Part shown: one piece after another, positions 1 through 15,672 of the stretch
Numbering within the stretch: the stretch's first letter is position 1
Layout of the letters: each line of letters opens with the position of its first letter
Virus record (IMG/VR): IMGVR_UViG_2740892218_000013
Span: 1-16,956 of that record
DNA: 16,956 bases
Reading direction: 5' to 3' (one strand)
Source: a virus
Lineage: Duplodnaviria > Heunggongvirae > Uroviricota > Caudoviricetes
Notes under the pieces: generated by a model
What the model was told of the DNA's origin: nothing
What the model saw: the letters and a program-made list of their open reading frames with translations, nothing else
Databases searched by the model: none
Program-made: the position numbers and the translations under genes

Positions 1-252
1 TTGTTGGGCTTGTTTAATCCAGTAACTGCGGGGCTTTAAGGCGAGTTTTCTAATCTTAAGTTTATCTTTCTGTTTCTGCTCCTCTCGTCGTCGTTTCTTC
101 TCTGCTGCTTTTTCCGCTTTTTTTCGCTGTTTACTTTGTAGTTCGAGTGCTAACTGAGTTCCGTGTTCCGGGCAGCACCACCACTGATTTGAGAATGCCG
201 GGTGAAACCATTCCTTGCATATTTTGCATTTCCTTCGCGCTGGTTTAGCCAT
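1..252 (-). CDS. ninG: NinG (Rap) recombination protein, N-terminal 84 codons; 3' end lies beyond the window
   Basis: Minus-strand frame from ATG at 250-252 reads [41 protein letters not shown]..., matching the lambda NinG N-terminus as I recall it; open to position 1. Confidence 0.8.
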
Positions 253-316
253 CGTCTTCTTCCTCGTACATTGAGCTATTCGGATCGCTCATCAGTTCTG
301 CGCAGTTATGGTCTGC
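245..316 (-). pseudogene. ninF: ninF 3' fragment (C-terminal ~20 codons), separated from its 5' part by the HNH gene
   Basis: Minus-strand frame ends ...[19 protein letters not shown] then TAA at 245-247, matching the recalled lambda NinF C-terminus. The frame stays open upstream to an ATG at 413-415 (57 codons) but that upstream part has no NinF similarity and overlaps the HNH ORF. Confidence 0.5.
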
Positions 317-812
317 CATGGTTTTCATGAAAACCCAGTTCTTTTTCTGCCCTCTTCCTTTCTGCAATAGCGTCAATGATGCTAGCAAATATTCCAAGAT
401 ATTTGGTGCGCCCATCTACGCATATATTCGCAATCCACTTACATCTCTCTTTATTGAAATATACTCCAGTCACTCCTGACGAATTGGTTATTTTTCTCTT
501 TTGGTTCTGTGCATTCTGTTGGTGTGTAACCAACCGAAGATTAGATAGCCTATTATCTGACCTTACTCCATTTATATGATCAATTTTATACCCTAATGGA
601 ATCTCACCATTATTTATCATCCATATAACGTGGTGAGCATAAGTAATTACACCATCGATAGTTAACATCCTATAACCATCACTCCTAATGTAACCAGCAA
701 CACTGCCAACCTTAACATTATTAGAAGGAGACACTTTCCATCTAAGTACACCTAAAACATCATCATATGATAATTTATTTCTTAATTCGTCTATGTTGCT
801 TATATTTCTCAT
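306..812 (-). CDS. HNH-family homing endonuclease with AP2-like DNA-binding domain (168 aa)
   Basis: ORF track protein contains DHINGVRSDNRLSNLRLVTHQQN (HNH motif) and GVTGVYFNKERCKWIANICVDGRTKYLGIF (AP2-like). The 5' half is markedly AT-rich compared with flanking nin genes. GGTGGAA precedes the ATG. Confidence 0.8.
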   Translation of the reverse strand: MRNISNIDELRNKLSYDDVLGVLRWKVSPSNNVKVGSVAGYIRSDGYRMLTIDGVITYAHHVIWMINNGEIPLGYKIDHINGVRSDNRLSNLRLVTHQQNAQNQKRKITNSSGVTGVYFNKERCKWIANICVDGRTKYLGIFASIIDAIAERKRAEKELGFHENHGRP

Positions 813-834
813 TATGTTCCACCATATTTAAGCA

Positions 835-954
835 TTCATATATACAACGCTCACACACGTGAACTTCCAGCACATGCAGCTTCTGACCGCAGTTAGCGCA
901 CGTTAAAGCTCGCTCGACACTTCCTTGTTCGTAACTTCGATTTTGGTCAATCAC
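835..954 (-). pseudogene. ninF: ninF 5' fragment (N-terminal zinc-finger part), terminated prematurely just before the HNH gene
   Basis: Minus-strand frame from GTG at 952-954 (overlapping the ninE stop) reads ...SYEQGSVERALTCANCGQKLHVLEVHVCERCII then TGA at 835-837, matching the recalled lambda NinF N-terminal half. Confidence 0.5.
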
Positions 955-1133
955 CTTGTTTTCCTCGCACGTTCTCTAAGCCACCGGATATCCCACAGGT
1001 GAGCCGTGTAGTTGAAGGTTTTTACGTCAGATTCTTTTGGGATTGGCTTGCGTTTATTTCTGGAGCGTTTCGTTGGAAGGTATTTGCAGTTTTCGCAGAT
1101 GATGTCGGTGATACTTCGTCGCTGTCGTCTCAT
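951..1133 (-). CDS. ninE: NinE (60 aa)
   Basis: [23 protein letters not shown]... matches lambda NinE as recalled; start overlaps the ninB stop. Confidence 0.8.
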
Positions 1134-1540
1134 TCGTACCTCCTGTCGGTAAATCTGACACCCTGACCAATAGCCCAGGCTGTTGTGTACTCGATCAGAC
1201 TTGCCATACGCTTCACGCTCATCTGCGCGCTGCTTTCGCGAATGTTGACGTATTCGCCTTCAAGGCCGGGCAAAACATCAGCTTCCTGCTTTGTTGCCAC
1301 TGCATGACCGCTGATCAACAAAACCTTCCATTGTTCTGGTTTTAACCATTTATCGCGCCACTGAACTTGCCTAGCGATATCTGCGACCATCGCGTGAAAT
1401 TTTGCGTTCTGGTCAAGGTTGCGCTTGTAGTCAGTAATGCGGATGGTGACTGGCTTGTCTTTATCGAGTGGTGTTGCGAGGATGGCATTTATTGCAGCTT
1501 GCTGTTGTTGCTTAGTTCGGAGGAAGATTGTTTGCTTCAT
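1130..1540 (-). CDS. ninB: NinB recombination protein
   Basis: NinB-like sequence (…[27 protein letters not shown]…). I place the start at ATG 1538-1540 (MKQTIFL, GAGGT 4 nt upstream) rather than the track's TTG at 1558. Confidence 0.8.
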
Positions 1541-1547
1541 TGTCACC

Positions 1548-1754
1548 TCAACTAACAAAACGCCACGCCATTTTTGCTACAGCAACAGGCGCAACACCGA
1601 TAATCACCCACAGGAGAATGCTACCGAAAAGCACACCCACCAGGTCTTTACCTTCGCCTACCAACCGGACAAAACTGCTGGCAACAACAATGAACGTCGC
1701 CACCATCCACATAGCACCGAGAATCCTCAATGCAGAGAAAATTAACTCAGCCAC
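1548..1754 (-). CDS. Small hydrophobic (two-TM) membrane protein, 68 aa, GTG start
   Basis: Strong SD GGGGGAGGG 5-6 nt upstream of GTG; highly hydrophobic translation; sits between a terminator and ninB. Function unknown. Confidence 0.45.
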   Translation of the reverse strand: MAELIFSALRILGAMWMVATFIVVASSFVRLVGEGKDLVGVLFGSILLWVIIGVAPVAVAKMAWRFVS

Positions 1755-1770
1755 GATTCACCCTCCCCCA

Positions 1771-1801
1771 AATAAAAAGGCCTGCGATTACCAGCAGGCC
1801 T
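1771..1801 (-). terminator. Rho-independent terminator (tR2-like) in the nin region
   Basis: Stem AGGCCTGC (1778-1785) / GCAGGCCT (1794-1801) with 8-nt loop; on the minus strand followed by TTTTATTT. Confidence 0.5.
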
Positions 1802-1826
1802 GTTATTAGCTCAGTGATGTAGATGG

Positions 1827-2096
1827 TCATTGCTTCATATCCCCTTCCATTTCATCAATGTCAACGTCATCAGGAAGATGGGAACAATACGCTGCTATAC
1901 CATGATGATTTATCTCATACCCTTTGAACGTTACCATCTGGCGCGTAATCTCAACTTCGTTCAGGAATCCGCCATCGCATAACTGCCTGGCTATTTTCGA
2001 TTTGGTCTGGATTATTGGTAGTGCCTGTTCTTTCAAAGCGTATGATATTTGTGCATCCCATGCCTTTTCGAGAATGGCTAATTGTTTTTTATTCAT
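1827..2096 (-). CDS. Hypothetical protein, 89 aa, translationally coupled to the helicase gene
   Basis: ORF start overlaps the helicase stop by 4 bp; ren/ninA-equivalent position; no motif recognised. Confidence 0.5.
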
Positions 2097-3469
2097 ACGT
2101 CAGCCCCTTGTGCATATCGTCTGCCACGCGCAGCAGGCGCATTTGATGCTGTGCAAATCTGTCTGGCTTCATCCTGGTCACATGCAACAAAGTGTCCGTT
2201 GCAGAACCGCTGGTAAACCGTACCAAGCGAGCCAAAACGGTTTTTCGTCACAATGATTTCAGCAAATGGTGCGGCGCTACTGTTCTCGTCATATACCGCT
2301 TCCCGATAGAGCATGATGATTGAGTCTGCGTCCTGTTCAATGCTTCCTGAATCACGCAAATCTGCGTTTGTCGGGCGTTTGTTTGGTCGCTTCTCAACAT
2401 CGCGCGAAAGCTGACTCAGGGAGATAACCGGTGTTTTCAGGTCTTTCGCCATCGCCTTCAGGCTTCCGGAGATGTGAGCAATTGCGAGGTCGTTGCGGTC
2501 TGCTTTCGGCTTCTCAATCAGGCCAAGATAATCCGCCATGATGAGTGACAGGTTTGGATTTTCCTGTTTGTGTCGTTCTGCGATTGAGCGTATTTCTTCG
2601 ACCGATAACCGCGAGGCATCGACTACCCACACATCCAAATCTGCAAGCTGACTCATGCCGTTAGCAACACGCGCCCAGCCTTCGTCATCCATCGATGCAG
2701 GATTTCGCAGTACGCTAACCGACATCCTCCCGGCGTTGGCAATGCTTCGCTCTGCAATCTGCAATGCGCTCATTTCCATTGAGAAAATCAATACCCCGCG
2801 CCGGACGTCAGAACCAGGAATAACGCGGCTTGCAACGCCTTCGGCAATCTTCAGCGCCAGTTCGGTTTTCCCCATACCAGGACGAGCAGCGATTATCACA
2901 AGGTCTTCTGCGTTCATCCCTCCGGTGATGGCATCAAGTTCTTCGATTCCGGTCTTCAGGGTATCTGACTCTTCTCCGTTCCTCAGACGCCTGTCAAGCG
3001 TGTCAGTGTAGTCAGTGATGATTTCCCCTAACCGTACAGGTTTAACCTCGTCACGGGGCTTTCTGATGGCTGAGAGACGTTTTACAAGTTCATCCATCGC
3101 CTGACTCGATGCGTCGATGGTTCCGCTCTGAATTGGTTCACGCATTTCATCCATGATTTCCAGCACCAGACGGCGGTGATAGTTATCCGCGACCATTCCG
3201 GCATATCCCTTCAGGTTTGCGGCACTCGGGCAGTTTTTGCTGGTCATCAGGATTGACGTGAAATGCTCCTCTCCGCACTCCTCGGCAACCATCAGCGCGT
3301 CGATTAGGTTTCTGTTTCGCGCCTGCTTGCGGATAACCTCGAAGGCCTTCCGGTAGAGCGGAATTGAAAACGCTTCCGGCTCCAGCGTTGCAAGAACGTC
3401 ACTGGCGGTTGGAGTTAATCCACCAATCAGCAGGCCGCCGATAACGCTCGCTTCGATATCCTGTCTCAT
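2093..3469 (-). CDS. Replicative DNA helicase, DnaB family (P22 gene 12 type), 458 aa
   Basis: Walker [13 protein letters not shown] and DnaB-like C-terminal domain; occupies the lambda P position, so replication uses its own helicase rather than a P-type loader. ATGA overlap with the O gene. Confidence 0.9.
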
Positions 3470-4296
3470 GCAATCCCCCTGTCTGCAAACTTCCCTTCCC
3501 GTACTCCCGTTAACGAATCTTCCCTCAGCAGGTAATCAAAATCTGCCGTCCAGCCCGTGTCGTTGTCTCCGAAGTAAAACGGCTTGGCCTGATGCACAAA
3601 CGCCCTGACATACGCTCTGAAACCGTCCACGTTTGGCGTTTTCAATTGCGGAATGATTTTCTTCAGGCGGCGTTTGCGTTTCTCGTTGACCGCAACAGCA
3701 TGTGGAAGTCTGTCACCGACTTCGGTGTTGTAGGCGTTCAGGAAGGATTCGTAGTCGATTCGTTCTGCCTTGCGACGTTCAGGTTTAACCTGCCCATCGC
3801 CGCCCCCATTAGGGGGTAAGGGGGTATTTGTATTTATTGTCTTTTGTATATTGTCTTTTGTGTTTGACTGATTCGGTAAATTGCTTTTTACCGATTTGGT
3901 GAAGGTTTGTTTTACCGAATTGGTAAATGTTTTACCGAATCCGTTAACTTTCGTTTTCCACTCGGAAATGTTTGTATTCATACCAACTTGACGCCCCACC
4001 TGAATGAGAACTCCCATTCTGATAAGCTCGTTTTTGGCGGTAGAGCATTTGGTTGGTGCCATGCCAGTGAGTTCAGCGAACTGTTCGTTTCCGATCCAAT
4101 CTATTTTTTTGTTGTAACCGTATGTCTTGCGCCACACAGCCATAACAATCAGTAACTGATGTAGAGTAAGCCCGGAAAGCATGGCGGCTTCTAACAGTGT
4201 GTTTGCAGTCCGAGTGTAGCCATCTTCGAGTTCTGCCACGCGATGCTCCACGACCTCCAGTTGAGGCCTGTAATCAGCTAACTTAACGACGCCCAT
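3466..4296 (-). CDS. Replication initiator, lambda O-like, 276 aa
   Basis: N-terminal region resembles lambda O (DDGY.R....LLEA...; WRKTYGYNK); the gene contains the ori iteron array. Confidence 0.85.
3830..3950. repeat. Replication origin inside the O gene: about four ~20-bp iterons plus adjacent AT-rich tract
   Basis: Repeats ACCGATTTGGTGAA / ACCGAATTGGTAAA / ACCGAATCCGTTAA plus inverted copy ATTCGGTAAATTG at 3871-3950; ATTGTCTTTTGT occurs twice in the AT-rich tract 3830-3866. Order matches lambda ori relative to O transcription. Confidence 0.6.
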
Positions 4297-4444
4297 GTTT
4301 CACTCCTGCTTTGGCTAGTCTGTAAACACCAACAAGGCGCTCTGCGAACGCCCTGTTATTTGCTGCGGCTACCACTAATCCCTCAGGTGAATCAGGGTGT
4401 CGAATCTCTTCTTTTTCCTGGTATTTCTTACGACGTTTTGTCAT
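4283..4444 (-). CDS. Small basic protein, 53 aa, between cII and O
   Basis: Not in the ORF track (under 60 aa). ATG at 4442-4444 with AGGAG 5 nt upstream; translation [53 protein letters not shown]; 3' end overlaps the O start by 14 bp. Confidence 0.4.
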   Translation of the reverse strand: MTKRRKKYQEKEEIRHPDSPEGLVVAAANNRAFAERLVGVYRLAKAGVKHGRR

Positions 4445-4476
4445 AATTACTCCTGTGGATTGATCCAGTAATTACC

Positions 4477-4773
4477 TCAGAACTCCATCTGGATTTGTTC
4501 AGAACGCTCGGTTGCCGCCGGGCGTTTTTTATTGGTTAGTCCATCAAGCGCATACTTAAAAGCCCTGCTAATCGGACTGATGTCTGATGCCATTCCAAAA
4601 GCACACAGAACCGAAGCAATAAATCTCCAGTCCGTTCTGCTTATCTTCGATTCATGACAGCCAATCATCTTTGCCAGACCGCGCTGGGTAAGCGTTGACA
4701 GATTGATGAGTAAATCTGTTTCTGCGCGATCAACGTCGCGCTGTGATAGTTTGCTGTAACTTGTTTGTTCCAT
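4477..4773 (-). CDS. cII: Transcriptional activator CII
   Basis: C-terminus ...LTNKKRPAATERSEQIQMEF matches lambda CII; position between cro and O. Confidence 0.9.
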   Translation of the reverse strand: MEQTSYSKLSQRDVDRAETDLLINLSTLTQRGLAKMIGCHESKISRTDWRFIASVLCAFGMASDISPISRAFKYALDGLTNKKRPAATERSEQIQMEF

Positions 4774-4838
4774 TTCTTACTATTTCCATAGGTAAATAAT
4801 CACTAATACCCATCTTTCGATGAGTGCTTAATTAGTTA

Positions 4839-4873
4839 CCGCGTTGTCGGCGGTGCAGATTGATAAAGAGCGG
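4839..4873 (-). promoter_or_regulatory. nutR: boxA plus P22-type boxB hairpin
   Basis: Minus strand reads CGCTCTTTAT (boxA) then ACCGCCGACAACGCGGT (5-bp stem, GACAA-type loop), just downstream of cro. Confidence 0.6.
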
Positions 4874-4882
4874 ATCCGCTTA

Positions 4883-5098
4883 TTAAGCGGCTTTGTGTTC
4901 CGGCGGGAACACGTCATCAAGACTGACTTTTGCGCCTAACTTGTTTAGGCACGCAACAAGAGCACGGCATGTTTTAAGGTCTGGGAAGCGACGACCAGAT
5001 TCCCAATGTCCGATAGCTCCCTGTGTGCATCCAACTGCCTTAGCAAGTGTTGTTTGAGAGATATTCAGTGACTCTCGATATTTTCGTAGGTTGCTCAT
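4883..5098 (-). CDS. cro: Cro-type repressor, 71 aa (HTH)
   Basis: HTH ISQTTLAKAVGCTQGAIGHWESG; ATG at 5096-5098 preceded by GGAGGG. The track's TTG at 5125 lies inside the pR -10 hexamer and is rejected. Confidence 0.8.
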   Translation of the reverse strand: MSNLRKYRESLNISQTTLAKAVGCTQGAIGHWESGRRFPDLKTCRALVACLNKLGAKVSLDDVFPPEHKAA

Positions 5099-5208
5099 AT
5101 GCCCTCCATAGTAACCATGAAGCAATAATACGATATGTACTTTTGAAATGCAAATAAAAATACATCTTGTGCATGGATGGTTTTAGTACAGAGCGTAATA
5201 ATAAGGAT
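5099..5208. promoter_or_regulatory. oR region with divergent pR and pRM
   Basis: pR on the minus strand: -35 TTGCAT (5148-5153), 17-bp spacer, -10 TATTAT (5125-5130). Inverted-repeat operator candidates ATGTACTTT / AAAATACAT also occur in the oL region. Confidence 0.7.
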
Positions 5209-5868
5209 ATGAAAATGAAATGGTATGAACTGGCTAGATCCAGAATGAAAGAGCTCGGCATAACTCAAGAGAAGTTAGCTGAAGAGCTTGGTATGACGCA
5301 GGGTGGAATTGGTCACTGGTTGCGCGGATCTCGTCATCCATCTCTTGACGAGATTGGTGTGGTGTTTAAATACCTTGGTATTGATAACGTCTCATTCAAC
5401 CACGACGGTACATTTTCACCTGTTGGCGAATACTCATCTGCCCCCGTTAAAAAACAATATGAGTACCCTGTTTTTTCTCATGTTCAGGCCGGGATGTTCT
5501 CGCCTGAGCTTAGAACCTTTACCAAAGGTGATGCGGAGAGATGGGTAAGCACAACCAAAAAAGCCAGTGATTGTGCATTCTGGCTTGAAGTTGAAGGTAA
5601 TTCCATGACCGCACCAACAGGCTACAAGCCAAGCTTTCCTGACGGGATGTTAATTCTGGTTGACCCTGAGCAGGCTGTCGAGCCAGGTGATTTCTGCATA
5701 GCCAGACTTGGGGGTGATGAGTTTACCTTCAAGAAACTGATCAGGGATAGCGGTCAGGTGTTCCTACAACCACTAAACCCGCAATATCCAATGATCCCAT
5801 GCAATGATAGCTGTTCCGTAGTAGGGAAAGTTATCGCCAGCCAGTGGCCTGAAGAGACATTTAGTTAA
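5209..5868 (+). CDS. cI: CI repressor: heterologous N-terminal HTH domain fused to a lambda-type C-terminal autocleavage domain
   Basis: C-terminal ~130 aa nearly identical to lambda CI as recalled (VQAGMF cleavage site, GNSM serine, FKKL lysine); N-terminal domain differs. Start could be ATG 5209 or 5215 (AAGGA upstream). Confidence 0.9.
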
Positions 5869-5899
5869 CAGCCTCACCACTCTAAAACACACAACAATA

Positions 5900-5929
5900 A
5901 CCCGACCTTAGCGTCGGGTTTTCTTTTTC
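5900..5929 (+). terminator. Rho-independent terminator downstream of cI
   Basis: Stem CCCGAC (5901-5906) / GTCGGG (5913-5918) followed by TTTTCTTTTT. Confidence 0.6.
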
Positions 5930-5993
5930 CAAAATATAAATCAATAAAATACAAAGTGTTATAAAAAACTAACCGCATTTAGAACATTTTGTA

Positions 5994-6022
5994 TTGACTC
6001 AATAAAGTACACATCGTACTAT
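5994..6022 (+). promoter_or_regulatory. pL promoter with overlapping oL operators
   Basis: -35 TTGACT (5994-5999), exact 17-bp spacer, -10 TACTAT (6017-6022); flanked by TACAAAGTGTT / AACATTTTGTA inverted repeats. Confidence 0.65.
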
Positions 6023-6067
6023 TTAGCCATCAGCAGGAAGCTGGAAGCCAAACGGAACAGATTGGCA

Positions 6068-6102
6068 GGCTCTTTAACTTCGATGGGGCGCTGACAAAGC
6101 GC
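6068..6102 (+). promoter_or_regulatory. nutL: boxA-like plus P22-type boxB hairpin
   Basis: GGCTCTTTAA (6068-6077) then GCGCTGACAAAGCGC (6088-6102), the P22 boxB-left sequence as I recall it, upstream of N. Confidence 0.7.
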
Positions 6103-6221
6103 AAATAGATACCAAACGAGATGGGTTTGGCGGTGATGTGAATTGCAGCTGCAACGACAGCAACCAGAAGATCAGCACCTGGCGCATCACCACCAAAGCC
6201 ATTTCACATGAGGAAAACATC

Positions 6222-6530
6222 ATGACGGTAATCGTGTACGGAAAATCAACATTTGCAGGAAATGCCAAAACTCGCCGTCATGAGCGGCGCAGAAAGCTGG
6301 CTATCGAGCGTGATTCCATCTGCAACATCATCGATTCGATCTTCGGCATAGACAGTGAGGAAGCTGTTCAGGAAGAACCGAGAAAGCGTTTAAGTCTTTC
6401 TGAAAAAGCAGCATCACTCGGCAATATTCGTAACCAAAATACCGACGAATGCAGTGGAAGTATTTGCCTGCCAAACGTAGCCATTTACGCGGCAGGCTAC
6501 CGGAAATCAAAACAACTGACAGCGAGGTAA
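6222..6530 (+). CDS. N: Antitermination protein N, P22 gene 24 type, ~102 aa
   Basis: Arginine-rich motif GNAKTRRHERRRKLAIERD near the N-terminus (the P22 N boxB-binding peptide as recalled). ATG at 6222 with GAGGA upstream, chosen over the track's start at 6138. Confidence 0.85.
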   Translation: MTVIVYGKSTFAGNAKTRRHERRRKLAIERDSICNIIDSIFGIDSEEAVQEEPRKRLSLSEKAASLGNIRNQNTDECSGSICLPNVAIYAAGYRKSKQLTAR

Positions 6531-6532
6531 TT

Positions 6533-6985
6533 ATGGATTTAAGTAAATTAGAAAGCTCTTTAGAAGCATCAGTAAAAAATTTTATATCAGTAATTGATGA
6601 AAAAACTGAAGATATTAAGAAAGCAAATATTGTCGAACTTGTAAAAACAAGAGCCAGTACATTTGATCATCTTCCTGATGATGTCCGGTCAGCGGCAATT
6701 CACGTATATGTAACGGCACTAAGCAATATTGAACCCCCAATTGATGAAGAATCAAGAGATATTCAGAAAAAACGGTTCGAGATGTTAGCCAGCAACATTA
6801 TCGCTGGTTTCACACGGCTCTTAACAAAAAAGCCTGCCAGTGAGGCTGTTCGCCAGCAGGCTCAGGTAATGATTAATCAGGCAGAAACTATTTCACGTGA
6901 GCGAAAAGCATTTGATAAATCGGTTTCTGAACTTCCAACACCTCAACCGCAGCCGCTGAACCTTCCTTCTCAACAAACTGAATAA
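6533..6985 (+). CDS. Hypothetical protein, 150 aa, AT-rich, translationally coupled to N
   Basis: ATG at 6533 three nt after the N stop, with GAGGT SD; first ~200 bp strongly AT-rich; no motif recognised; 3' end overlaps a convergent ORF. Confidence 0.5.
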   Translation: MDLSKLESSLEASVKNFISVIDEKTEDIKKANIVELVKTRASTFDHLPDDVRSAAIHVYVTALSNIEPPIDEESRDIQKKRFEMLASNIIAGFTRLLTKKPASEAVRQQAQVMINQAETISRERKAFDKSVSELPTPQPQPLNLPSQQTE

Positions 6986-7142
6986 CTTCATCAAGATTCT
7001 TTTTTGCATGTGATGATTGCTCAGGTGGCATAGCAGAAACAATCGAAATGATTGCTTGCTGGAGCGCGAGGTTTTCAGTGCTCAGTTTTGAAACTCTGTT
7101 GTTTAAATCCTCAATGATTTTAACAAGAGATACATCTGACAT
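6888..7142 (-). CDS. Hypothetical protein, 84 aa, antisense to the pL operon
   Basis: ATG at 7140-7142 with AAGGAG 5 nt upstream; predicted helical (LNNRVSKLSTENLALQQAI); overlaps the 3' end of the 6533-6985 ORF by 98 bp. Confidence 0.4.
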   Translation of the reverse strand: MSDVSLVKIIEDLNNRVSKLSTENLALQQAIISIVSAMPPEQSSHAKKNLDEVIQFVEKEGSAAAVEVLEVQKPIYQMLFAHVK

Positions 7143-7153
7143 GTGAACTCCTT

Positions 7154-7203
7154 CTTTTGACTGTGGAAACAACAGTCTACCCATTTCCTTTGACTGTGGA
7201 AAG
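7154..7203. repeat. Two direct copies of a 16-bp motif, 34 bp apart, in the intergenic region
   Basis: CTTTTGACTGTGGAAA at 7154-7169 and CCTTTGACTGTGGAAA at 7188-7203 (15 of 16 identical), between the minus-strand ORF start and the 7282 gene. Confidence 0.6.
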
Positions 7204-7281
7204 TGAAGGAACCACCGAGCCTGATGTGGTTAAAAGACAGGCACAATCTTTACAGCCGCAATCCACTATTTAAGGTGATAT

Positions 7282-7731
7282 ATGGAAGAACAAGCAAACA
7301 AGATTCTCGTAGAACTACTGCAAAAAGCCAGTAATGGAATAGACGCGGCTGTTTCATTTAGCCAGGCACAGATTCCTGATGTTGTTCATCAGTTGCTGCT
7401 ATGGAATATGGTTGACAGTCTGATTAAAACATTAATAGCCATTCTAACAATCCCACTGGTTTTCTGGTTTATGAAGAAGCAGTGCCAAAGAGTTGAGATA
7501 GGTAAAATCGGTAATGAAGGATATTCATGGGAGAAGGGAAATCCCAAATACAGGCCGACAATGGTTTGGGATAGCAAAGGTGATATTAATCTTCTTATCA
7601 TGCCATTGGTTGGAGTTTTGACTCTGTGGGGGATTTTTATTATTGGTGCAGTAACCAATATGACTTGGTTAAAAATTTGGCTGGCTCCAAAGCTTTACCT
7701 TATCGAATATGCAGCATCATTGGTTAAGTAA
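7282..7731 (+). CDS. Multi-pass inner-membrane protein, 149 aa; candidate superinfection-exclusion protein
   Basis: AAGGTGA SD; two or three hydrophobic helices; followed by a terminator; lies where lambda has sieB. No sequence identity recognised. Confidence 0.55.
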   Translation: MEEQANKILVELLQKASNGIDAAVSFSQAQIPDVVHQLLLWNMVDSLIKTLIAILTIPLVFWFMKKQCQRVEIGKIGNEGYSWEKGNPKYRPTMVWDSKGDINLLIMPLVGVLTLWGIFIIGAVTNMTWLKIWLAPKLYLIEYAASLVK

Positions 7732-7736
7732 TTTCA

Positions 7737-7764
7737 GGCCGCATAGTCGGCCTTTATTTTTGGC
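7737..7764 (+). terminator. Rho-independent terminator
   Basis: Stem AGGCCG (7737-7742) / CGGCCT (7749-7754), loop CATAGT, then TTATTTTTGG. Confidence 0.55.
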
Positions 7765-7880
7765 ATAAACAACAGAATAAATACTGCACTGTGTATTCAT
7801 TCCGACGAGTGAATACACGGAGCAATGTCGCTCGTAACTAAACAGGAGCCGACTTGTTCTGATTATTGGAAATCTTCTTT

Positions 7881-7907
7881 GCCCTCCAGTGTGAGGGCGA
7901 TTTTTTT
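7881..7907 (+). terminator. Rho-independent terminator immediately upstream of the 7920 gene's SD
   Basis: Stem GCCCTC (7881-7886) / GAGGGC (7893-7898), loop CAGTGT, then GATTTTTTT; GGAGGA SD follows directly. Confidence 0.55.
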
Positions 7908-7919
7908 GATGGAGGATAT

Positions 7920-8888
7920 ATGAGTGAAGTAACAGACTTAGTTGTTATTGAAAAAGCAAATGCAATGACTGTATTTCAGTCTGCAGACCAGATTGAAGAA
8001 ATCCTTCAAAAGGTTGAACGTGAAGTTATGTCCTTTGTGCCTGATATCACAACGGCAAAGGGCAGAAAGGAGATCGCTTCTCTGGCGTATAAAGTTGCGC
8101 AGACGAAAACATATCTCGATGGTCTTGGCAAAGACCTTGTTGCTGAACTGAAGGAAATTCCAAAGCTAATTGATGCCAACCGCAAGACAGTGCGCGATCG
8201 CCTTGATGAACTGAAAGCCAAGGCGCGCCAGCCTCTTACTGATTATGAGGAAGAACAGGCGCGGATTAAAGCCGAAGAAGAAGCTAAGGCAGCAGCTGAA
8301 GCTCTCGCAAAGCAAATTGAGTCTGACCATGAAATAGCTATTTTGATGGATCGCGAATTTGACCGCCAAAGAGAAGAGGCAAGACTCAAAGCGGAGCAGG
8401 AAAAGCGAGAGCATGAAGAACGATTAAAAAGAGAAGCTGAAGAGAAAGCCAGAGCAGAAGCCGAAGCAAAGGCAAAAGCCGAAATTGAAGCAGCAGCAAG
8501 GCGAGAAGCAGAAGCTAAGGCCGCAGCGGAACGTGCAGAGCGTGAACGCATTGAAGCCGAGCAACGAGCACAGCGCGAAGCAAAAGAGGCAGCAGAACGA
8601 GCTGAAAGAGAAAAGCAGGCAGCAATTGAAGCAGAACGCAGAAAAGCACAGGAGGAGGCTGAACGAATCCGTCGCGAGGCTGAAGCAAAAGAGCAAGCCA
8701 GAATAGCAGAAGAAAAAAGAATCAAGGACGAAGAAGATCGTAGAGCAAAGGATAAAGCTCACCGGAAAGAAGTAAATAACAAAATACTTGCTGACCTTAT
8801 CAAGGTTGGCGCATCAGAAGATGTTGCTAAAAATATCATAACAGCCATCGTAAAAGGCGAAGTATTCGCAACAAAAATAACCTACTAA
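7920..8888 (+). CDS. Coiled-coil protein, 322 aa, with long E/A/K/R-rich central repeat region
   Basis: ATG at 7920 after GGAGGA. Globular N-terminal ~110 aa, ~170 aa of EAKA/REAE-type repeats, short conserved C-terminal tail. Function unknown; sits just upstream of cIII. Confidence 0.65.
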   Translation: MSEVTDLVVIEKANAMTVFQSADQIEEILQKVEREVMSFVPDITTAKGRKEIASLAYKVAQTKTYLDGLGKDLVAELKEIPKLIDANRKTVRDRLDELKAKARQPLTDYEEEQARIKAEEEAKAAAEALAKQIESDHEIAILMDREFDRQREEARLKAEQEKREHEERLKREAEEKARAEAEAKAKAEIEAAARREAEAKAAAERAERERIEAEQRAQREAKEAAERAEREKQAAIEAERRKAQEEAERIRREAEAKEQARIAEEKRIKDEEDRRAKDKAHRKEVNNKILADLIKVGASEDVAKNIITAIVKGEVFATKITY

Positions 8889-8912
8889 TAAAACCAACAT
8901 AAGGAACCACCC

Positions 8913-9059
8913 ATGATTTACGCAATCGCGGGAGGCGCTCGCATGGGTGCCTTCCAATTAAATGAATCTTTACTTGAACGAATCACCCGTAAATTACGTG
9001 ACGGATGGAAACGACTCATCGACGTACTTAATCAGCCAGGATTTCCAAAAAATGGATAA
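8913..9059 (+). CDS. cIII: CIII (protects CII from FtsH), 48 aa
   Basis: Not in the ORF track. AAGGAA SD 6 nt upstream; translation MIYAIAGGARMGAFQLNESLLERITRKLRDGWKRLIDVLNQPGFPKNG matches the lambda CIII core (ESLLERITRKLRDGWKRLIDILNQPG) as recalled. Confidence 0.85.
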   Translation: MIYAIAGGARMGAFQLNESLLERITRKLRDGWKRLIDVLNQPGFPKNG

Positions 9060-9165
9060 AACACTTATGGCTATCCAGACTAAATTCACTATCGCCACTT
9101 TTATTGGCGATGAAAAGATGTTTCGTGAGGCCGTCGAGGCCTACAGGAAATGGAGGTCAAAATGA
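9052..9165 (+). CDS. kil: Kil-like host-killing protein, 37 aa
   Basis: Internal Met of the track ORF 8962-9165; MDKTLMAIQTKFTIATFIGDEKMFREAVEAYRKWRSK resembles the lambda Kil N-terminus as recalled; start overlaps the cIII stop. Confidence 0.6.
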   Translation: MDKTLMAIQTKFTIATFIGDEKMFREAVEAYRKWRSK

Positions 9166-9350
9166 TTCCGGTAGAACTGGCGAAAACTCCAGAGTTAAGT
9201 CGATTAAAAAGAGAATATCACATTGCTGAGGCTCGTTACTGGCGTAAAGCGGGAGATAAATCAAAGAAACAACTTTGTTTATGGCAGGCACAAAGAGAGC
9301 GCATGAATGAGCGAGAGTTTCTTTCCTCCCCATCCGAATTACCATTCTGA
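9162..9350 (+). CDS. Hypothetical protein, 62 aa
   Basis: ATG at 9162 with GGAGG 5 nt upstream; start overlaps the kil stop; in the lambda gam position but not Gam-like. Confidence 0.45.
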   Translation: MIPVELAKTPELSRLKREYHIAEARYWRKAGDKSKKQLCLWQAQRERMNEREFLSSPSELPF

Positions 9351-9358
9351 GGCAAATT

Positions 9359-10039
9359 ATGGGAACTGCAACATTAATACTCGGTGAGTCTGGCACCGGA
9401 AAATCAACCAGCATGAGAAATATCAATCCAGAGGAAGCAATACTTATAAAACCAATAGGCAAGCCGCTACCATTTAAATCAAAAGACTGGCTGGCATGGG
9501 ATGCCAGAGCAAAAAAAGGAACCGTAGTTACCACTGACAAATGGGATGTAATAGTTGCCGTAATTAAGCGTGCTCACGAATACGGGAAAAGAATCGTTAT
9601 TGTTGATGACTTCCAGTATGTGATGAGCAATGAGTTTATGCGCCGCTCAGAAGAAAAATCGTTTGATAAATTCACTGAGATAGGCCGTCACGCATGGGAG
9701 GTCATTAAGGCTGCACAAGATGCACCTGATGACCTGAGAGTCTATTTTCTTGCGCACACCGAAGAAACCCCTATGGGGCGCGTGAAAATGAAAACTATCG
9801 GCAAAATGCTGGACGAGAAGATCACTGTTGAAGGCATGTTTACTATAGTTCTTCGCACCCTTACCCGTGATGACCAGTTCTTTTTCACCACGAAAAACAA
9901 CGGTGCAGACACTGTTAAATCCCCAATGGGAATGTTTGATTCCAATGAGATTGATAACGATCTCTCTTTCGTCGATGCCACTGTTTGTGATTACTACGGC
10001 ATCAATAATGTTCATCAAATTAAGGAAAACGCCGCATGA
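9359..10039 (+). CDS. Sak4-type RecA-like ATPase (phage single-strand annealing recombinase family), 226 aa
   Basis: Walker A GESGTGKST near the N-terminus, Walker B IVIVDD, ~225 aa core-only size; lies where lambda has bet/exo. Confidence 0.7.
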   Translation: MGTATLILGESGTGKSTSMRNINPEEAILIKPIGKPLPFKSKDWLAWDARAKKGTVVTTDKWDVIVAVIKRAHEYGKRIVIVDDFQYVMSNEFMRRSEEKSFDKFTEIGRHAWEVIKAAQDAPDDLRVYFLAHTEETPMGRVKMKTIGKMLDEKITVEGMFTIVLRTLTRDDQFFFTTKNNGADTVKSPMGMFDSNEIDNDLSFVDATVCDYYGINNVHQIKENAA

Positions 10040-10623
10040 GCAACGTAATTTTTACTTATAACGAAGAAGCAGCACTGACCGCAGGGCAAGGTGGTTTTAT
10101 TAACGAAACTGGCGCTCATATCATTACCATTACTGAAGCAGAACTAAAGCAATCAGAAAAAGGCGCAAAATTTATTGAGTTTTCTGGCGAATCCGACGAC
10201 GGACGTAAAATACAATATCTTAGCGTTTGTGTTCAGAAAAATGACGGAACGGAAAACAAATTTGGCGCAAATGTCGTTCACGCCATGATGGGGTGTGCCG
10301 GTATTGGACAATTAACGCAACATATGGTTTCCGCCAGTAAATTTGTTGCACCTGAATTTCATGGAAAGAAAATCGGGTTAGTGCTCCAGAAAGTATTAAC
10401 CACAAACAAAAAGACTGGCGCAGACAGCTACCAGATGGAAATACGCATCCCGTTTATTGCACAAACAGGTCAAACCCTTAAAGAAAAGGCGGAAGGCAAG
10501 CAACCAGAAACTATCGCCAACATGGTTGCCAGCCTCAAAGATAAAGACAATCGCTCTAAAAACGTAAGCCAGAATCATGCAGATGATTATGGTTACAGCC
10601 AGAACGATTACCCTCCTTTCTGA
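10036..10623 (+). CDS. Putative ssDNA-binding protein partner of Sak4, 195 aa, with SSB-like acidic tail ending in Phe
   Basis: Translationally coupled to the Sak4-like gene (ATGA overlap). C-terminus ...HADDYGYSQNDYPPF resembles the SSB and T7 gp2.5 acidic tail with terminal aromatic residue. OB fold not verifiable by eye. Confidence 0.4.
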   Translation: MSNVIFTYNEEAALTAGQGGFINETGAHIITITEAELKQSEKGAKFIEFSGESDDGRKIQYLSVCVQKNDGTENKFGANVVHAMMGCAGIGQLTQHMVSASKFVAPEFHGKKIGLVLQKVLTTNKKTGADSYQMEIRIPFIAQTGQTLKEKAEGKQPETIANMVASLKDKDNRSKNVSQNHADDYGYSQNDYPPF

Positions 10624-10646
10624 TTACTGAAAATAAGGCTCCCATT

Positions 10647-10943
10647 ATGCCAGCGCCTCTGTATGGTGCGGATGACCCGCGCAACTGCTCCGGTAGCTCC
10701 AAGGCGGAGGTGCTGGAAAATATCAAAAACAATTTCGACGCGTTTCTTGCTCTGACGCCAGAAACAAAAGCAGAACGGATGTACCGACGCGATATACAAC
10801 TCGCGCTAAAACAGGAGAAGGACCGAACAAACGAAACAGCAATGAGACCGTTGCGAAAAGCGACAATAGACAAATTCCCTGAATATATCGACCCGCGCCT
10901 GCGTAATTACCGCTCACGCTATGGCGCTATCAGTAATGACTGA
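10647..10943 (+). CDS. Hypothetical protein, 98 aa
   Basis: ORF in operon orientation with an upstream purine-rich tract; no motif recognised. Confidence 0.45.
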
Positions 10944-10953
10944 GGAATTTACC

Positions 10954-11118
10954 ATGAGAGGACTTGCATACAATCCCGGCATTCTTCCGGCAGAAATGAT
11001 TATTCGCCAACGCGTAAAGCCAATGCCATCGAGAGAGGAATTGCTTAAGAGAAATTCTTTTCCATCAGTGAATCAAAACAAATATCTGAATGCGATGTGG
11101 CGGAGTGGGAAGAAATGA
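10954..11118 (+). CDS. Hypothetical small protein, 54 aa
   Basis: Internal ATG of track ORF 10921-11118, preceded by GAGGAA at 6-nt spacing. Confidence 0.3.
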
Positions 11119-11786
11119 AACAAATGTCACTAATTGAGATGGATGGTTTTCTGAAAGGTAAATGCATCCCAAGTGATTTAAAGGTTAACGAAACAAACGC
11201 TGAATATCTTGTCCGTAAGTTCGGTGAACTTGAATCAAAACTAGAAACGGCGTTGCGGGAGTGTCGTTCTGCTGGAATCACGATTGATAACCTTGAGGCC
11301 AAGTGCGCGGCGCTGGCAGCGGAGAATGCAAGACTGAAGGCCGGGGCTATGTATTTCTCATATGGCTCTGAATTTAGTTTCGAGTGTCACAAAACTGCTG
11401 AGGAGGCTATCGCTGCTGCTGAGGCTGCAATTGACGACTATAGAGGCGATGCTTGCGATGGATGGAGCGAAGAGGTCGAAAGCATTTGCTGGGGGGTAAT
11501 TATTCAGCAGGCAACCAAGGTCGGTGAACGCAAGAAGAGGAAATGCGACAGAGTATCACCATGGATTGAAAGAGTTTGTGATTATGAGCTTCGACCTAAT
11601 GTCGAAACCCCAGCCACCGATGCTTTCCTGGCTGAAGTACGAGCGCAGGGCGTGGAGATGTTTGCACAGAAATGTAACTCAAAATCCGAACAGTCATTTG
11701 CATCTGATATACGCGATAACTGGAAACTACTCGGTGAACATGCCACTGACTTTGCCGCAGAGCTTCGCAAAGGAGGCAACCAGTGA
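11097..11786 (+). CDS. Coiled-coil protein, possibly Ead/Ea22-like; start uncertain (11097 or 11115)
   Basis: Central coiled-coil ([39 protein letters not shown]); position between the recombination module and xis. Confidence 0.5.
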
Positions 11787-12052
11787 GTGAGTCAAAATGC
11801 CAAATTAATGGCAACAAGATAGAACCGTGCGCGGCTTTGGCAAAATCTCTCGAATATGGAAATCCAACATTCAAGAGTAAAGGCATATTTATCCCGGAAC
11901 GTGTGAACATAAACACCGGCGAGTCAGGCATAGATATTGCTCAAATTCACTCTGGGCAATATATCGGTCGTGGTGTTGCAATGTGTTTTTGCCCGTTCTG
12001 TGGTGAAAGTCTGAAAACGTGGGAAGCGGAGGCAACCAGTGAGCGAGATTGA
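11783..12052 (+). CDS. Hypothetical protein, 89 aa, GTG start
   Basis: Starts with GGAGGCAACCA-GTG-AGT-GAG overlapping the upstream stop; contains a CxxC pair (CPFCGE). Confidence 0.45.
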   Translation: MSESKCQINGNKIEPCAALAKSLEYGNPTFKSKGIFIPERVNINTGESGIDIAQIHSGQYIGRGVAMCFCPFCGESLKTWEAEATSERD

Positions 12053-12620
12053 CTATCAGGCACTGCGTGCTAAGGCAGAAAAAGCAACGTGTGGTGTGTG
12101 GTCGCTCGAATATGGAGAGGAGAGATTTGATGCTGGTGATGCGCTAATTCATCGTGAAGTTGTTGGATATCTTCCCATTTGCAGAATTGAAGGAGCGCAT
12201 CCTGAAAGCGGTTTCGATGAAGATTTCCAAATGGAACAGCAGGCCAATGCTGAATTCATCGCCGCAGCCAATCCCGCTACCGTCTTGGCGCTGCTGGATG
12301 AACGGGAAAGAAACCAGCAATACATAAAACGCCGTGACCAGGAGAACGAGGATATTGCGCTAACGGTAGGGAAGCTGCGCGTTGAGCTTGAAGCAGCAAA
12401 ATCAAAACTCAACGAGCAGCGTGAATATTACGAGGGAGTAATCGCGGATGGAAGTAAGCGCATAGCAGAACTGGAGGAGCGGGAAATACTGCTCCCGGAA
12501 CGTAGCAGTATGCTTCATCGAACAGATTTTCACGAGGATTACCAAACGGTAATGGCATACAAAGTTTCTGAGGTCATCGCTGCAATCCGCGCCGCTGGCA
12601 TTCGCATCAAAGGAGAGTGA
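12039..12620 (+). CDS. Ead/Ea22-like family protein, 193 aa, GTG start
   Basis: Motif EFIAAANPATVLALLDE followed by coiled-coil, typical of Ea22-like prophage proteins as recalled; same SD-GTG-MSE start cassette as the previous gene. Confidence 0.55.
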   Translation: MSEIDYQALRAKAEKATCGVWSLEYGEERFDAGDALIHREVVGYLPICRIEGAHPESGFDEDFQMEQQANAEFIAAANPATVLALLDERERNQQYIKRRDQENEDIALTVGKLRVELEAAKSKLNEQREYYEGVIADGSKRIAELEEREILLPERSSMLHRTDFHEDYQTVMAYKVSEVIAAIRAAGIRIKGE

Positions 12621-12621
12621 G

Positions 12622-12819
12622 ATGGACAAAAACACACCTGCTTACTGGAGTCTGTCACTTGATACCGAATGTCCAAAATGTGGTCACAATTTCGATCTGC
12701 TTTGTGATCCAGATTTCTGGGAGTTTTCTGGAGCTAAACAGGCATGTGAAGAAATAAAAGGTTACGAAACATGCTGTCCAGAATGTAACCATGAATTTAA
12801 AACAGATTTCGTGTATTGA
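12622..12819 (+). CDS. Small zinc-ribbon protein, 65 aa
   Basis: Two Cys pairs (CPKCGH ... CCPECNH); tightly packed after the upstream gene. Confidence 0.5.
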   Translation: MDKNTPAYWSLSLDTECPKCGHNFDLLCDPDFWEFSGAKQACEEIKGYETCCPECNHEFKTDFVY

Positions 12820-12829
12820 GGCATAACAA

Positions 12830-13282
12830 ATGACCACTATTACCAGAGAACAAGCTCTGAAAATTATTGAGGCAGCCGATGAGGTTATTAGTGCGCTGGC
12901 CGGAACTAATGAGGATGTTCACCCTGGTAGCGATAACATGCTACGCCTGTGGGATGACCTGAATGACCGTTACGCGCCGCCGGAAGTTGTGCGTGAGCTG
13001 GCACGGATTGCACTGGCATCACTGGAAGCAAAACCAATAGGTGCTTTCCACATTGCAGAACAGCAGGTCGATGGCACAAGTGACTACATCAAGGATGGGG
13101 AGTGGCCTATTGATAATGGGACAATTGAAGTATACGCCGCCCCTCCAGCGCCAGTAGTACCGGAAGAAAAACCAATGCCTAACCCTCTTAGCATGTACAC
13201 AGTTGATGCTGTTGCAGCTATTGCAGAGGTGAGAGGCTGGAACGCCTGCCGTGCAGCCATGCTTAAGGGAGATAAATCATGA
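12830..13282 (+). CDS. Hypothetical protein, 150 aa
   Basis: ORF in operon orientation; stop overlaps the next start (ATGA). Confidence 0.5.
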   Translation: MTTITREQALKIIEAADEVISALAGTNEDVHPGSDNMLRLWDDLNDRYAPPEVVRELARIALASLEAKPIGAFHIAEQQVDGTSDYIKDGEWPIDNGTIEVYAAPPAPVVPEEKPMPNPLSMYTVDAVAAIAEVRGWNACRAAMLKGDKS

Positions 13283-13629
13283 TTAATCGAACCAAACTGG
13301 AGCACATCCTCGAGTATGCCAGGCAGCAGAGGCGCTTTGGCCAGCTTTGTAAAATTCTGCCAGGAGATATGGTTGAAATCGTGGAGATTGCCATGCGTAA
13401 GACTGGCAACTCTCCGGTAAGTCCGGGTGGTTGGATAAGCTGTAGTGAGCGAATGCCCGCTCAAGATGATTGGATTTTAATTTATTCAAAGCACGGTGAG
13501 TATATGGCAGGACAGGTACAAGAGGAATACGTGGAGTTGAGCGACGGCACTTTATCGTGGTTAGGGAACGCCTTGTACTGGATGCTGCTACCAGAACCGC
13601 CGCAGGGAGTGAATGATGAATTGGCCTGA
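13279..13629 (+). CDS. DUF551-like prophage protein, 116 aa
   Basis: Motif WISCSERMP...DDWILIY resembles the DUF551 signature (W.S..ERLP) as recalled. Confidence 0.5.
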   Translation: MINRTKLEHILEYARQQRRFGQLCKILPGDMVEIVEIAMRKTGNSPVSPGGWISCSERMPAQDDWILIYSKHGEYMAGQVQEEYVELSDGTLSWLGNALYWMLLPEPPQGVNDELA

Positions 13630-13699
13630 AGCATTCACCGCTGTAGGAGTTGCAATCGCGGTGGCATTTATTCTGTATTCGCTTTTCCGCTGGGGATAA
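13616..13699 (+). CDS. Possible small single-TM peptide, 27 aa
   Basis: Not in the ORF track. ATG 13616 (alternative 13613) after GGGAG; translation MNWPEAFTAVGVAIAVAFILYSLFRWG; overlaps the upstream gene's end and stops 4 nt before the next start. Confidence 0.3.
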   Translation: MNWPEAFTAVGVAIAVAFILYSLFRWG

Positions 13700-13703
13700 A
13701 GGA

Positions 13704-13946
13704 ATGTTCGCTCTGATTCAACGTGGTCAGATATACACCGATAGCGCCGGCTACCCGATAAAAATTCTTCGCTGCATAAACAACACTGTGTTGTACAGAA
13801 GAATGGATGGGCGAACACAGTCGGTAAAAATAAACGATTTTAATGAACTGTTTGAACGGATCGATCACCAGGAATACCGACAAATTCTGGCTGAAACAGA
13901 GCAGGAGAACCATCTGAAAAAATTACGCGCCATGCAAAGGAGATAA
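13704..13946 (+). CDS. Hypothetical protein, 80 aa
   Basis: Internal ATG of track ORF 13650-13946 (MFALIQRGQIY...), placed directly after the small peptide stop. Confidence 0.45.
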   Translation: MFALIQRGQIYTDSAGYPIKILRCINNTVLYRRMDGRTQSVKINDFNELFERIDHQEYRQILAETEQENHLKKLRAMQRR

Positions 13947-14007
13947 ACCGGTAAAGGTGTTCGCGATAAAGGTGAATATCGGCAATGAATAACAATCCTC
14001 GCACTCG

Positions 14008-14032
14008 CGGGGATTTATTTTATCTGAACTCG
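14008..14032 (+). terminator. Possible Rho-independent terminator
   Basis: Stem ACTCGC (14008-14013) / GCGAGT (14018-14023), loop TACG, then TTTGTTTTAT. Confidence 0.4.
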
Positions 14033-14064
14033 CTACGGCGAGTTTTGTTTTATGGAGATGATAA

Positions 14065-14232
14065 ATGCACTTCCGAGTCACAGGTGAATGGAATGGAGAA
14101 CCATTCAACAGAGTTATCGAAGCGGAGAACATCAACGACTGCTACGACCACTGGATGATATGGGCACAGATAGCACATGCAGACGTAACCAATATTCGAA
14201 TTGAAGAACTGAAAGAACACCAAGCCGCCTGA
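14065..14232 (+). CDS. Hypothetical small protein, 55 aa
   Basis: Not in the ORF track. ATG at 14065 with GGAGATGA upstream; translation MHFRVTGEWNGEPFNRVIEAENINDCYDHWMIWAQIAHADVTNIRIEELKEHQAA; stop lies in the loop of a terminator hairpin. Confidence 0.45.
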   Translation: MHFRVTGEWNGEPFNRVIEAENINDCYDHWMIWAQIAHADVTNIRIEELKEHQAA

Positions 14233-14247
14233 TGGCGGTTTTTTCTT
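14223..14247 (+). terminator. Rho-independent terminator upstream of xis
   Basis: Stem CCGCC (14225-14229) / GGCGG (14234-14238), loop TGAT, then TTTTTTCTT. Confidence 0.55.
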
Positions 14248-14271
14248 GCGTGTAATTGCGGAGACTTTGCG

Positions 14272-14490
14272 ATGTACTTGACACTTCAGGAGTGGAACGC
14301 ACGCCAGCGACGCCCAAGAAGCCTTGAAACAGTTCGTCGATGGGTTCGCGAATGCAGGATATTCCCACCTCCGGTTAAGGATGGAAGAGAGTATCTGTTC
14401 CACGAATCAGCGGTAAAGGTTGACTTAAATCGACCAGTAACAGGTAGCCTTTTGAAGAGGATCAGAAATGGGAAGAAGGCGAAGTCATGA
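14272..14490 (+). CDS. xis: Excisionase Xis, lambda type, 72 aa
   Basis: MYLTLQEWNARQRRPRSLETVRRWVRECRIFPPPVKDGREYLFHESAVKVDLNRPVTG.LLKRIRNGKKAKS is essentially lambda Xis as recalled; overlaps the int start by 23 bp as in lambda. Confidence 0.9.
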   Translation: MYLTLQEWNARQRRPRSLETVRRWVRECRIFPPPVKDGREYLFHESAVKVDLNRPVTGSLLKRIRNGKKAKS

Positions 14491-15538: not shown

Positions 15539-15626
15539 TGATTTTATTTTGACTGATAGTGACCTGTTCGTTGCAACAAATTGATAAGTAATGCTTTTTT
15601 ATAAGGCCAACTTAGTATAAAAAAGC
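15539..15626. other. attL junction: P' arm with arm-type Int sites plus 15-bp core
   Basis: Core TTAGTATAAAAAAGC at 15612-15626 is the reverse complement of the lambda core GCTTTTTTATACTAA; arm-type site ATAGTGACCT at 15556-15565; flanking GCAGGCTTCA matches the bacterial attB arm. Confidence 0.85.
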
Positions 15627-15672
15627 AGGCTTCAACGGATTCATTTTTCCATTTCATAGCCCGGAGCAACCT

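Follow-up and report, generated by a model that had tools for sequence, protein, structure and literature searches.

A free-standing HNH/AP2-type endonuclease gene within ninF of lambdoid prophages of Escherichia coli

Structure of the interrupted ninF locus

The ninF gene of an Escherichia coli prophage, represented by IMG/VR record IMGVR_UViG_2740892218_000013, was found to be interrupted by a cassette carrying a separate endonuclease gene. The window, i.e. the whole stretch of DNA analysed, comprises positions 1..16,956 of that record (16,956 nt). The ninF locus occupies positions 954..245 of the minus strand, to which all features described in this section belong. In descending order of coordinates, the genes are ninB (1558..1130), ninE (951..1133; Pfam NinE, E 3e-43), ninF and the 5' part of ninG, also named rap (1..251), which is cut by the window edge and is annotated as NinG in matching records. 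The stop codon of ninE and the start codon of ninF overlap.

The 5' part of ninF (845..954) begins with a GTG start codon (954..952) and contains codons 1-36 as well as the first two bases of codon 37. It aligns to lambda ninF and was recognised by Pfam NinF (E 6e-12, 45.7 bits with a cut-off of 27.5) and by PHROG 672. Next comes the inserted cassette, 539 bp in length (306..844) and devoid of flanking repeats, and then a 3' remnant of ninF (245..305), in which base 305 completes codon 37 and is followed by codons 38-56 (from position 304) and the TAA stop (247..245). This remnant overlaps the ninG start codon (ATG, 251..249).

The boundaries of the cassette were determined by alignment with lambda and with strains E2348/69 and SW07096. 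The insertion point lies between bases 2 and 3 of codon 37, and the alignment to uninterrupted ninF yielded unambiguous junctions (..GAG CGT TG|TATATATG....GACCATAA|C TGC GCA..) with neither a target-site duplication nor a deletion. Joining of 954..845 to 305..245 gives a 171-nt open reading frame (ORF) for a 56-aa NinF, which has the same length as lambda NinF and differs from it by three substitutions (E11G, H36R and H49Y). A preliminary description of this DNA, made from the sequence alone, had proposed that a free-standing HNH gene splits ninF between two residues that are adjacent in NinF. The alignments to lambda and to other uninterrupted ninF genes of relatives bear this out and supply the exact boundaries. 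The insert length of approximately 525 bp given there was, however, an underestimate.

The cassette is composed of a 32-nt leader (813..844) and an ORF of 168 aa (306..812), which has its own ATG and uses a frame different from that of ninF. As read from the sequence, a Shine-Dalgarno motif (GGTGGA, 823..818) within the leader precedes the ATG by 5 nt. The leader additionally codes for the first amino acids of a new C-terminal extension of NinF. The TAA stop of the endonuclease gene (308..306) constitutes the last 3 nt of the insert. Scans of the cassette for promoters and terminators gave no more matches than expected by chance. The insert has a GC content of 35.1%, compared with 49.7% for the two ninF parts, 47% for ninE and 48% for ninB, which agrees with the earlier remark that it is more AT-rich than the flanking nin genes.

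The 5' frame of ninF continues into the insert for 22 codons (...VCERC-IYECLNMVEHNEKYKQHRRIKK) and terminates at a TAA at 777..775 (ORF 775..954). The resulting product has 59 aa, of which 37 are NinF residues and 22 are encoded by the insert, and its ORF overlaps the start of the HNH ORF by 36 nt. The stop of this frame had previously been placed at 835-837, where the codon is in fact GAA. Similarly, the C-terminal tail of NinF (CAELM...DDG) had been assigned to positions 245-316; the tail is indeed present, but it starts at 304, and the assigned span takes in 11 nt of the insert.

The HNH/AP2-type endonuclease

The 168-aa ORF matched Pfam HNH_3 (E 1.2e-19, residues 58-102) and PHROG 99, 'HNH endonuclease' (E 3e-70). 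Among the HNH motif columns of 59 homologues, D78, N91 and N103 do not vary and H79 and N100 hardly do; none of the predicted catalytic residues (D78-H79, N91 and N100/N103) is missing from the window protein. An AlphaFold model built on the alignment of the 59 homologues reached a predicted local distance difference test score (pLDDT) of 90.9. The best match of this model among solved structures is I-HmuI (1u3e), over the full length (Foldseek probability 1.0, E 1e-3), and phmmer also matches 1u3e over the HNH motif. Of the defence-system models, only generic 'homing endonuclease' models gave matches.

The ORF had been described beforehand as HNH/AP2. Its HNH part was confirmed by the profile match and the I-HmuI-like predicted fold. 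The AP2 part received a divided answer: residues ~112-160 of the model form three strands and a helix, which match AP2 domains of plants and apicomplexans (7et4, 1gcc and 7wq5; probability 0.99-1.0), whereas Pfam AP2 alone remained below threshold (E 0.024, 15.4 bits versus a cut-off of 33.3). The 'HNH/AP2' label holds on the evidence of the predicted fold.

The cassette is very probably a minimal free-standing homing endonuclease gene, made up of the 32-nt leader and the 168-aa HNH/AP2 ORF and situated in codon 37 of ninF. The most likely type is that of I-HmuI, i.e. the HNH_3 kind.

Comparison with other classes of inserted elements

The insert is precisely placed, and the reading frame of ninF is recovered once it is taken out; moreover, I-HmuI, the best structural match, is itself encoded by an intron. 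These features would fit a self-splicing element, either a group I intron with an HNH ORF or an intein, from which ninF is expressed intact. We consider the probability of this explanation to be practically negligible. A cmscan search of positions 1..1800 on both strands, with permissive filters and E-values up to 10, revealed no Rfam intron family, and no Rfam family of any kind matched the insert. Only 32 of the 539 nt of the insert lie outside the endonuclease ORF. In group I introns, the exon upstream of the 5' splice site ends in U and the intron itself in G. Both rules are contradicted here, with G (...CGTTG) as the final base of the 5' flank and A (...CCATAA) as that of the insert. The rejection of a group I intron in the preliminary description was therefore justified. 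An intein is ruled out by the presence of three ORFs in three different frames, with stops between them.

A transposon or insertion sequence was rejected as well. Target duplication, terminal inverted repeats and a transposase gene are all absent, and the sole ORF encodes the HNH nuclease. The ends of the insert (TATATATGAATG... and ...GGCAGACCATAA), as read from the sequence, are not mutual inverted copies.

Occurrence of the cassette and its insertion site

A search for the same endonuclease elsewhere revealed that it recurs at the same ninF site in many prophage backgrounds. The cassette was found in 45 of 5,426 complete E. coli genomes, with 98-99.8% identity and in all cases under features annotated as NinF. 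The carriers include the enteropathogenic E. coli strain E2348/69 and the enterotoxigenic E. coli strain B7A. It was also present in 28 IMG/VR contigs, always in ninF, and in a few metagenome contigs, while the cluster of the endonuclease at 90% protein identity has 369 member sequences. Neither the cassette nor a relative with >60% identity was detected in any of the 50,697 deposited phage genomes, though 418 of them carry this nin region.

The junctions were identical in every interrupted locus read (31 in one set and 32 in another) and recur in the 45 E. coli genomes, and at least 120 uninterrupted ninF alleles are present in IMG/VR. Counted by gene context, the interrupted loci fall into at least 15 types upstream and at least 7 downstream, and they include ninF 5' ends of both lambda type and P22 type. 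The cassette thus constitutes a presence/absence polymorphism at one precise site across many prophage backgrounds.

In RefSeq, the Prokaryotic Genome Annotation Pipeline treats the endonuclease gene as a pseudogene that is incomplete ('missing C-terminus'), and it assigns the name 'protein NinF' to two separate ORFs. The loci annotated in this manner are L001 3466-3892 (E2348/69, NC_011601.1 735973-736399) and L002 2529-2904. Alignment showed that the 168-aa ORF is intact in these genomes, and the pseudogene call looks like an annotation artefact arising from the overlapping NinF calls. Both the pseudogene call and the double 'NinF' naming could be corrected in reference strains such as E2348/69 and B7A.

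Other genes of this type were noticed in the vicinity of ninF. A 175-aa HNH/AP2-type gene, whose product is 33% identical to the ninF-borne endonuclease, lies between ninB and dam (L002 965-1492, strain SW07096), and locus L024 has another HNH/AP2-type gene directly downstream of ninF. It seems that genes of this kind commonly insert into the nin region.

Diversity, selection and age

Nucleotide diversity was 0.52% in the cassette, compared with 2.9% (80 nt) and 1.6% (56 nt) in the adjoining parts of ninF from the same loci. A cassette less diverse than its flanks fits a single origin followed by spread over older backgrounds. It occurs on at least eight haplotypes of six common ninF single-nucleotide polymorphisms (SNPs), and six complete 138-nt flank haplotypes are common to interrupted and uninterrupted alleles. 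The cassette itself is represented by 16 haplotypes among 28 copies. Within this lineage, 12 synonymous and 8 nonsynonymous SNPs were found in the endonuclease ORF, the common ones all being synonymous. There were no SNPs in the leader among the 27 full copies, and the ORF is intact in 26 of these 27.

A second lineage was identified, which rests on one 909-nt Logan contig (P0002, locus L151, Logan SRR25288770 1-909) and shares 85% protein and 81% DNA identity with the first. Its cassette interrupts a diverged ninF (…IHVCE?C…DPNGQMLEKDDG) at the identical position, TG|TATATATG, and this ninF is followed by ybcO instead of ninG. In this copy, a 27-nt deletion removes the stop of the endonuclease gene along with the first 8 codons of the tail, giving a fused product of 176 aa. 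Searches for more members of the second lineage yielded none in IMG/VR, only distant relatives in GTDB species genomes and only the first lineage in JGI metagenomes.

The ratio of nonsynonymous to synonymous substitution rates (dN/dS) between the two lineages is 0.07. As judged from the pattern of substitutions, the endonuclease ORF is under purifying selection, and the compared copies demonstrate a single origin of the insertion in each lineage. As the low dN/dS was obtained between 81%-identical lineages residing at the same site, the endonuclease must have been kept functional for a long time, and its association with this site is old, not recent. The insertion had previously been described as recent-looking. 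The clean junctions do give this impression, but the 16 haplotypes among 28 copies and the diverged lineage at the same site speak for an old association.

The linked substitution at codon 36

Codon 36 of ninF (847..849, minus strand), located 2-4 nt upstream of the insertion point, is CGT (Arg) in the window and in all interrupted loci read, i.e. in both of the sets mentioned above (31 and 32 loci). The uninterrupted loci were gathered by means of a pattern in which the 18 nt before and the 11 nt after this codon are fixed; among the 121 loci obtained, codon 36 is CAC in 115 and TAC in 6. It is the only fixed difference between the flanks of interrupted and uninterrupted alleles. A ninF that has CGT but lacks the insert, which would represent either a trace of cassette loss or the ancestral target, was found neither in the 5,426 E. 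coli genomes nor in IMG/VR, where a 30-mer gave no matches and a 17-mer gave nine, all in unrelated sequences.

The same tendency is visible at the protein level. In the NinF clusters of a 5.8-billion-protein collection, residue 36 is H, D, Y, A, V or C, and Arg occurs only together with the insert-encoded tail. In the second lineage, codon 36 is AAA (Lys). Neither Lys nor Arg is found at this residue in any uninterrupted NinF cluster. The change at codon 36 may guard the carrier allele from its own enzyme. On the other hand, tight linkage alone could explain the association.

Fate of the NinF product

According to the preliminary description, the insertion inactivates ninF. This is not established: the insert severs Cys38 from the rest of NinF, yet the 59-aa product passes the Pfam NinF threshold. 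The product keeps C19, C22, C34 and C37, i.e. the C-x2-C...C-x2-C set. However, several natural NinF variants (P0105, P0123, P0124, P0127, P0146 and P0159) have Ser37 and keep Cys38 (C-x-x-S-C), and Cys38 is always present in full-length NinF variants. A comparison of these variants suggests that Cys38, the fifth Cys of the usual C-E-H-C-C motif, may be the conserved metal ligand.

It may be asked whether ninF is rather a 'gene in pieces', with NinF working as the 59-aa product alone or together with a separate C-terminal peptide, so that the insertion would be neutral or would have created a new variant. The four retained Cys residues and the Pfam score of the 59-aa product, well above the cut-off, are in line with this proposal, as is the lack of SNPs in the 27 copies of the leader that encodes the beginning of the new tail. 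In addition, the acidic 19-residue tail is preceded by in-frame ATGs situated inside the HNH gene (ORF 245..415). These ATGs, however, have no convincing ribosome-binding site, as read from the sequence, and the 27-nt deletion in the second lineage took the first 8 tail codons, as expected of a dead remnant. Since the natural variants with Ser37 always have Cys38, the severed residue may be the true ligand. Taken together, we regard a working NinF in pieces as unlikely.

Proposed mechanism of spread

With the anatomy of the locus, the family of the enzyme, its polymorphism and the selection acting on it in hand, we infer the following mechanism for a free-standing homing endonuclease gene in ninF. 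The cassette has the same orientation as the nin genes and would therefore be transcribed with the nin operon. In lambda, this operon is expressed by transcription from pR with N antitermination, at the time when the phage replication and recombination functions are made. The endonuclease would accordingly be produced from the delayed-early rightward transcript, along with the products of the recombination genes ninB (orf) and ninG (rap). By analogy with HNH enzymes of the I-HmuI type, it would nick or cut the uninterrupted ninF of another lambdoid phage or prophage in the same cell, at ...GAG CAC TG^C TGC GCA... or close by. In the ensuing recombinational repair, the carrier copy would serve as template and bring the cassette, together with the linked codon-36 change (CAC to CGT), into the cut allele, and this change may protect the carrier allele from cutting.

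The cost to the phage would be a NinF cut after residue 37, which gains a foreign 22-residue tail and loses its acidic 19-residue tail. The phage would be able to tolerate such a truncation, since lambda can dispense with the nin region, to which ninF belongs, as known from the nin5 deletion.

Several observations weigh against active homing. The frequency of the cassette is ~1% in E. coli genomes and zero among the 418 phage records with the nin region, and a strong gene drive would be expected to differ from this. Some copies are decaying: a frameshift was found in L023, an insertion in L178, identified as IS1 by its end sequence, and an IS3-family element in Eco_70239 (L200 1263-2491, as annotated). 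A near-identical prophage without the insert was not encountered; in a search with the healed sequence, the best match over the full length had 96.8% identity. The conservation of the presumed target within the span of the collection pattern is partly a matter of construction, as the pattern fixes those bases. Finally, lambdoid nin regions are mosaic in general, and all four allele combinations of nearby SNPs are also present among the uninterrupted ninF alleles. Alleles that lack the cassette thus bear the same traces of recombination, so that homing and ordinary homologous recombination are not distinguished by the population data, and the sharing of haplotypes was discarded as proof of homing.

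These observations could be accommodated by a single old insertion that is no longer, or never was, actively homing and has been moved by ordinary recombination, its enzyme being kept for some benefit to phage or host or not yet decayed. The recombination among nearby ninF SNPs in uninterrupted alleles, the extremely mosaic flanks, the low frequency with absence from all of the deposited phage genomes, and the copies broken by a frameshift or insertion sequences all agree with such a history. We nevertheless find it quite improbable. The strong purifying selection (dN/dS 0.07, common SNPs all synonymous) is hard to explain without activity. Furthermore, two diverged lineages occupy the identical site of diverged ninF genes, and the diversity of the insert is below that of its immediate flanks.

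If the free-standing homing endonuclease gene is active, a further-reaching suggestion can be made. The enzyme might act on the conserved Cys-motif codons of ninF in lambda, P22-like and Shiga toxin (Stx) phages and serve as a natural gene drive or as a weapon in competition, with CGT or AAA at codon 36 as the determinant of self-immunity. From the sequence comparisons we hold this to be possible rather than probable, and put it forward only tentatively.

Relation to known systems

I-HmuI of Bacillus phage SPO1 (PDB 1U3E) is similar in size to the ninF-borne endonuclease (174 versus 168 aa), and in both proteins the nuclease domain is followed by a DNA-binding domain. However, I-HmuI sits in a group I intron, whereas the ninF endonuclease gene is free-standing, and the two proteins are only 22% identical. 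The C-terminal DNA-binding module of the ninF endonuclease is AP2-like, unlike that of I-HmuI. I-HmuI is a nicking enzyme.

A closer parallel in terms of gene organization is provided by two cases known as 'genes in pieces': mobE, which lies in nrdA of Aeromonas phage Aeh1, and mobA, located between genes 39 and 60 of T4. As in ninF, a free-standing HNH gene with its own start and stop divides a coding sequence into two ORFs. In the mobE and mobA cases the two halves are both reported to be translated and to form an essential enzyme together, while here the gene concerned encodes a dispensable 56-aa product, the tail of which has no evident translation signal. Like nrdA with mobE, the interrupted ninF belongs to the already known class of host genes that harbour a free-standing homing endonuclease gene, and it adds one example to this class. 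In the literature searched, we found no paper linking ninF with an HNH or homing endonuclease gene.

The nearest annotated relatives of the endonuclease are HNH_3/AP2 genes (PHROG 99) of Klebsiella Webervirus and related virulent phages, with ~50% identity over 97% of the length and the same domains. These genes are also free-standing, but they are intergenic, e.g. between a helicase gene and a gene of unknown function, and reside in unrelated virulent phages.

The free-standing homing endonucleases of the T4 type, Seg and Mob, carry out intronless homing, in the course of which flanking markers are co-converted (PMC2988022, PMC2790892). The ninF cassette resembles them in its presence/absence polymorphism, in the linked flanking substitution, here at codon 36, and in its spread over different backgrounds. 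The Seg and Mob genes are, on the other hand, normally intergenic and cut a nearby gene, whereas the ninF cassette is placed inside its presumed target and occurs in temperate lambdoid prophages.

Free-standing homing endonuclease genes have been well studied in virulent T4-like phages and much less in temperate lambdoid phages, which exchange DNA mainly when resident in the same cell. The ninF gene of laboratory lambda carries the presumed target (...GTGTGTGAGCACTGCTGCGCAGAACTG...), so that cleavage, co-conversion and the cost of the insertion would be measurable by lambda genetics. Should the endonuclease prove active, it would provide a lambda-based system for studying the spread of homing endonucleases and target immunity in temperate phages.

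Other features of the prophage

The remaining features noted in the window are all on the plus strand. A lambda-type integrase gene with an arm-binding domain (14468..15538) is followed by a gene of the pectinesterase family (15673..16956), which is cut by the window edge and which we take to resemble E. coli ybhC, a neighbour of the lambda attachment site. If this likeness holds, the window would correspond to the left half of a lambdoid prophage located in attB-lambda or its vicinity.

Three ORFs are located downstream of the N gene (6449..6985, 7282..7731 and 7866..8888; 178, 149 and 340 aa, respectively), a location that in lambdoid phages is often taken by genes for exclusion or defence. 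They had no Pfam or PADLOC match, and their PHROG matches were only to families of unknown function. A gene for a P22-type Abc2 anti-RecBCD protein (10647..10943; Pfam E 1.5e-35) adjoins genes for an AAA_24 ATPase and an SSB-like (single-stranded DNA-binding) protein, and the recombination module of the prophage is accordingly P22-like and not of the lambda Red type.

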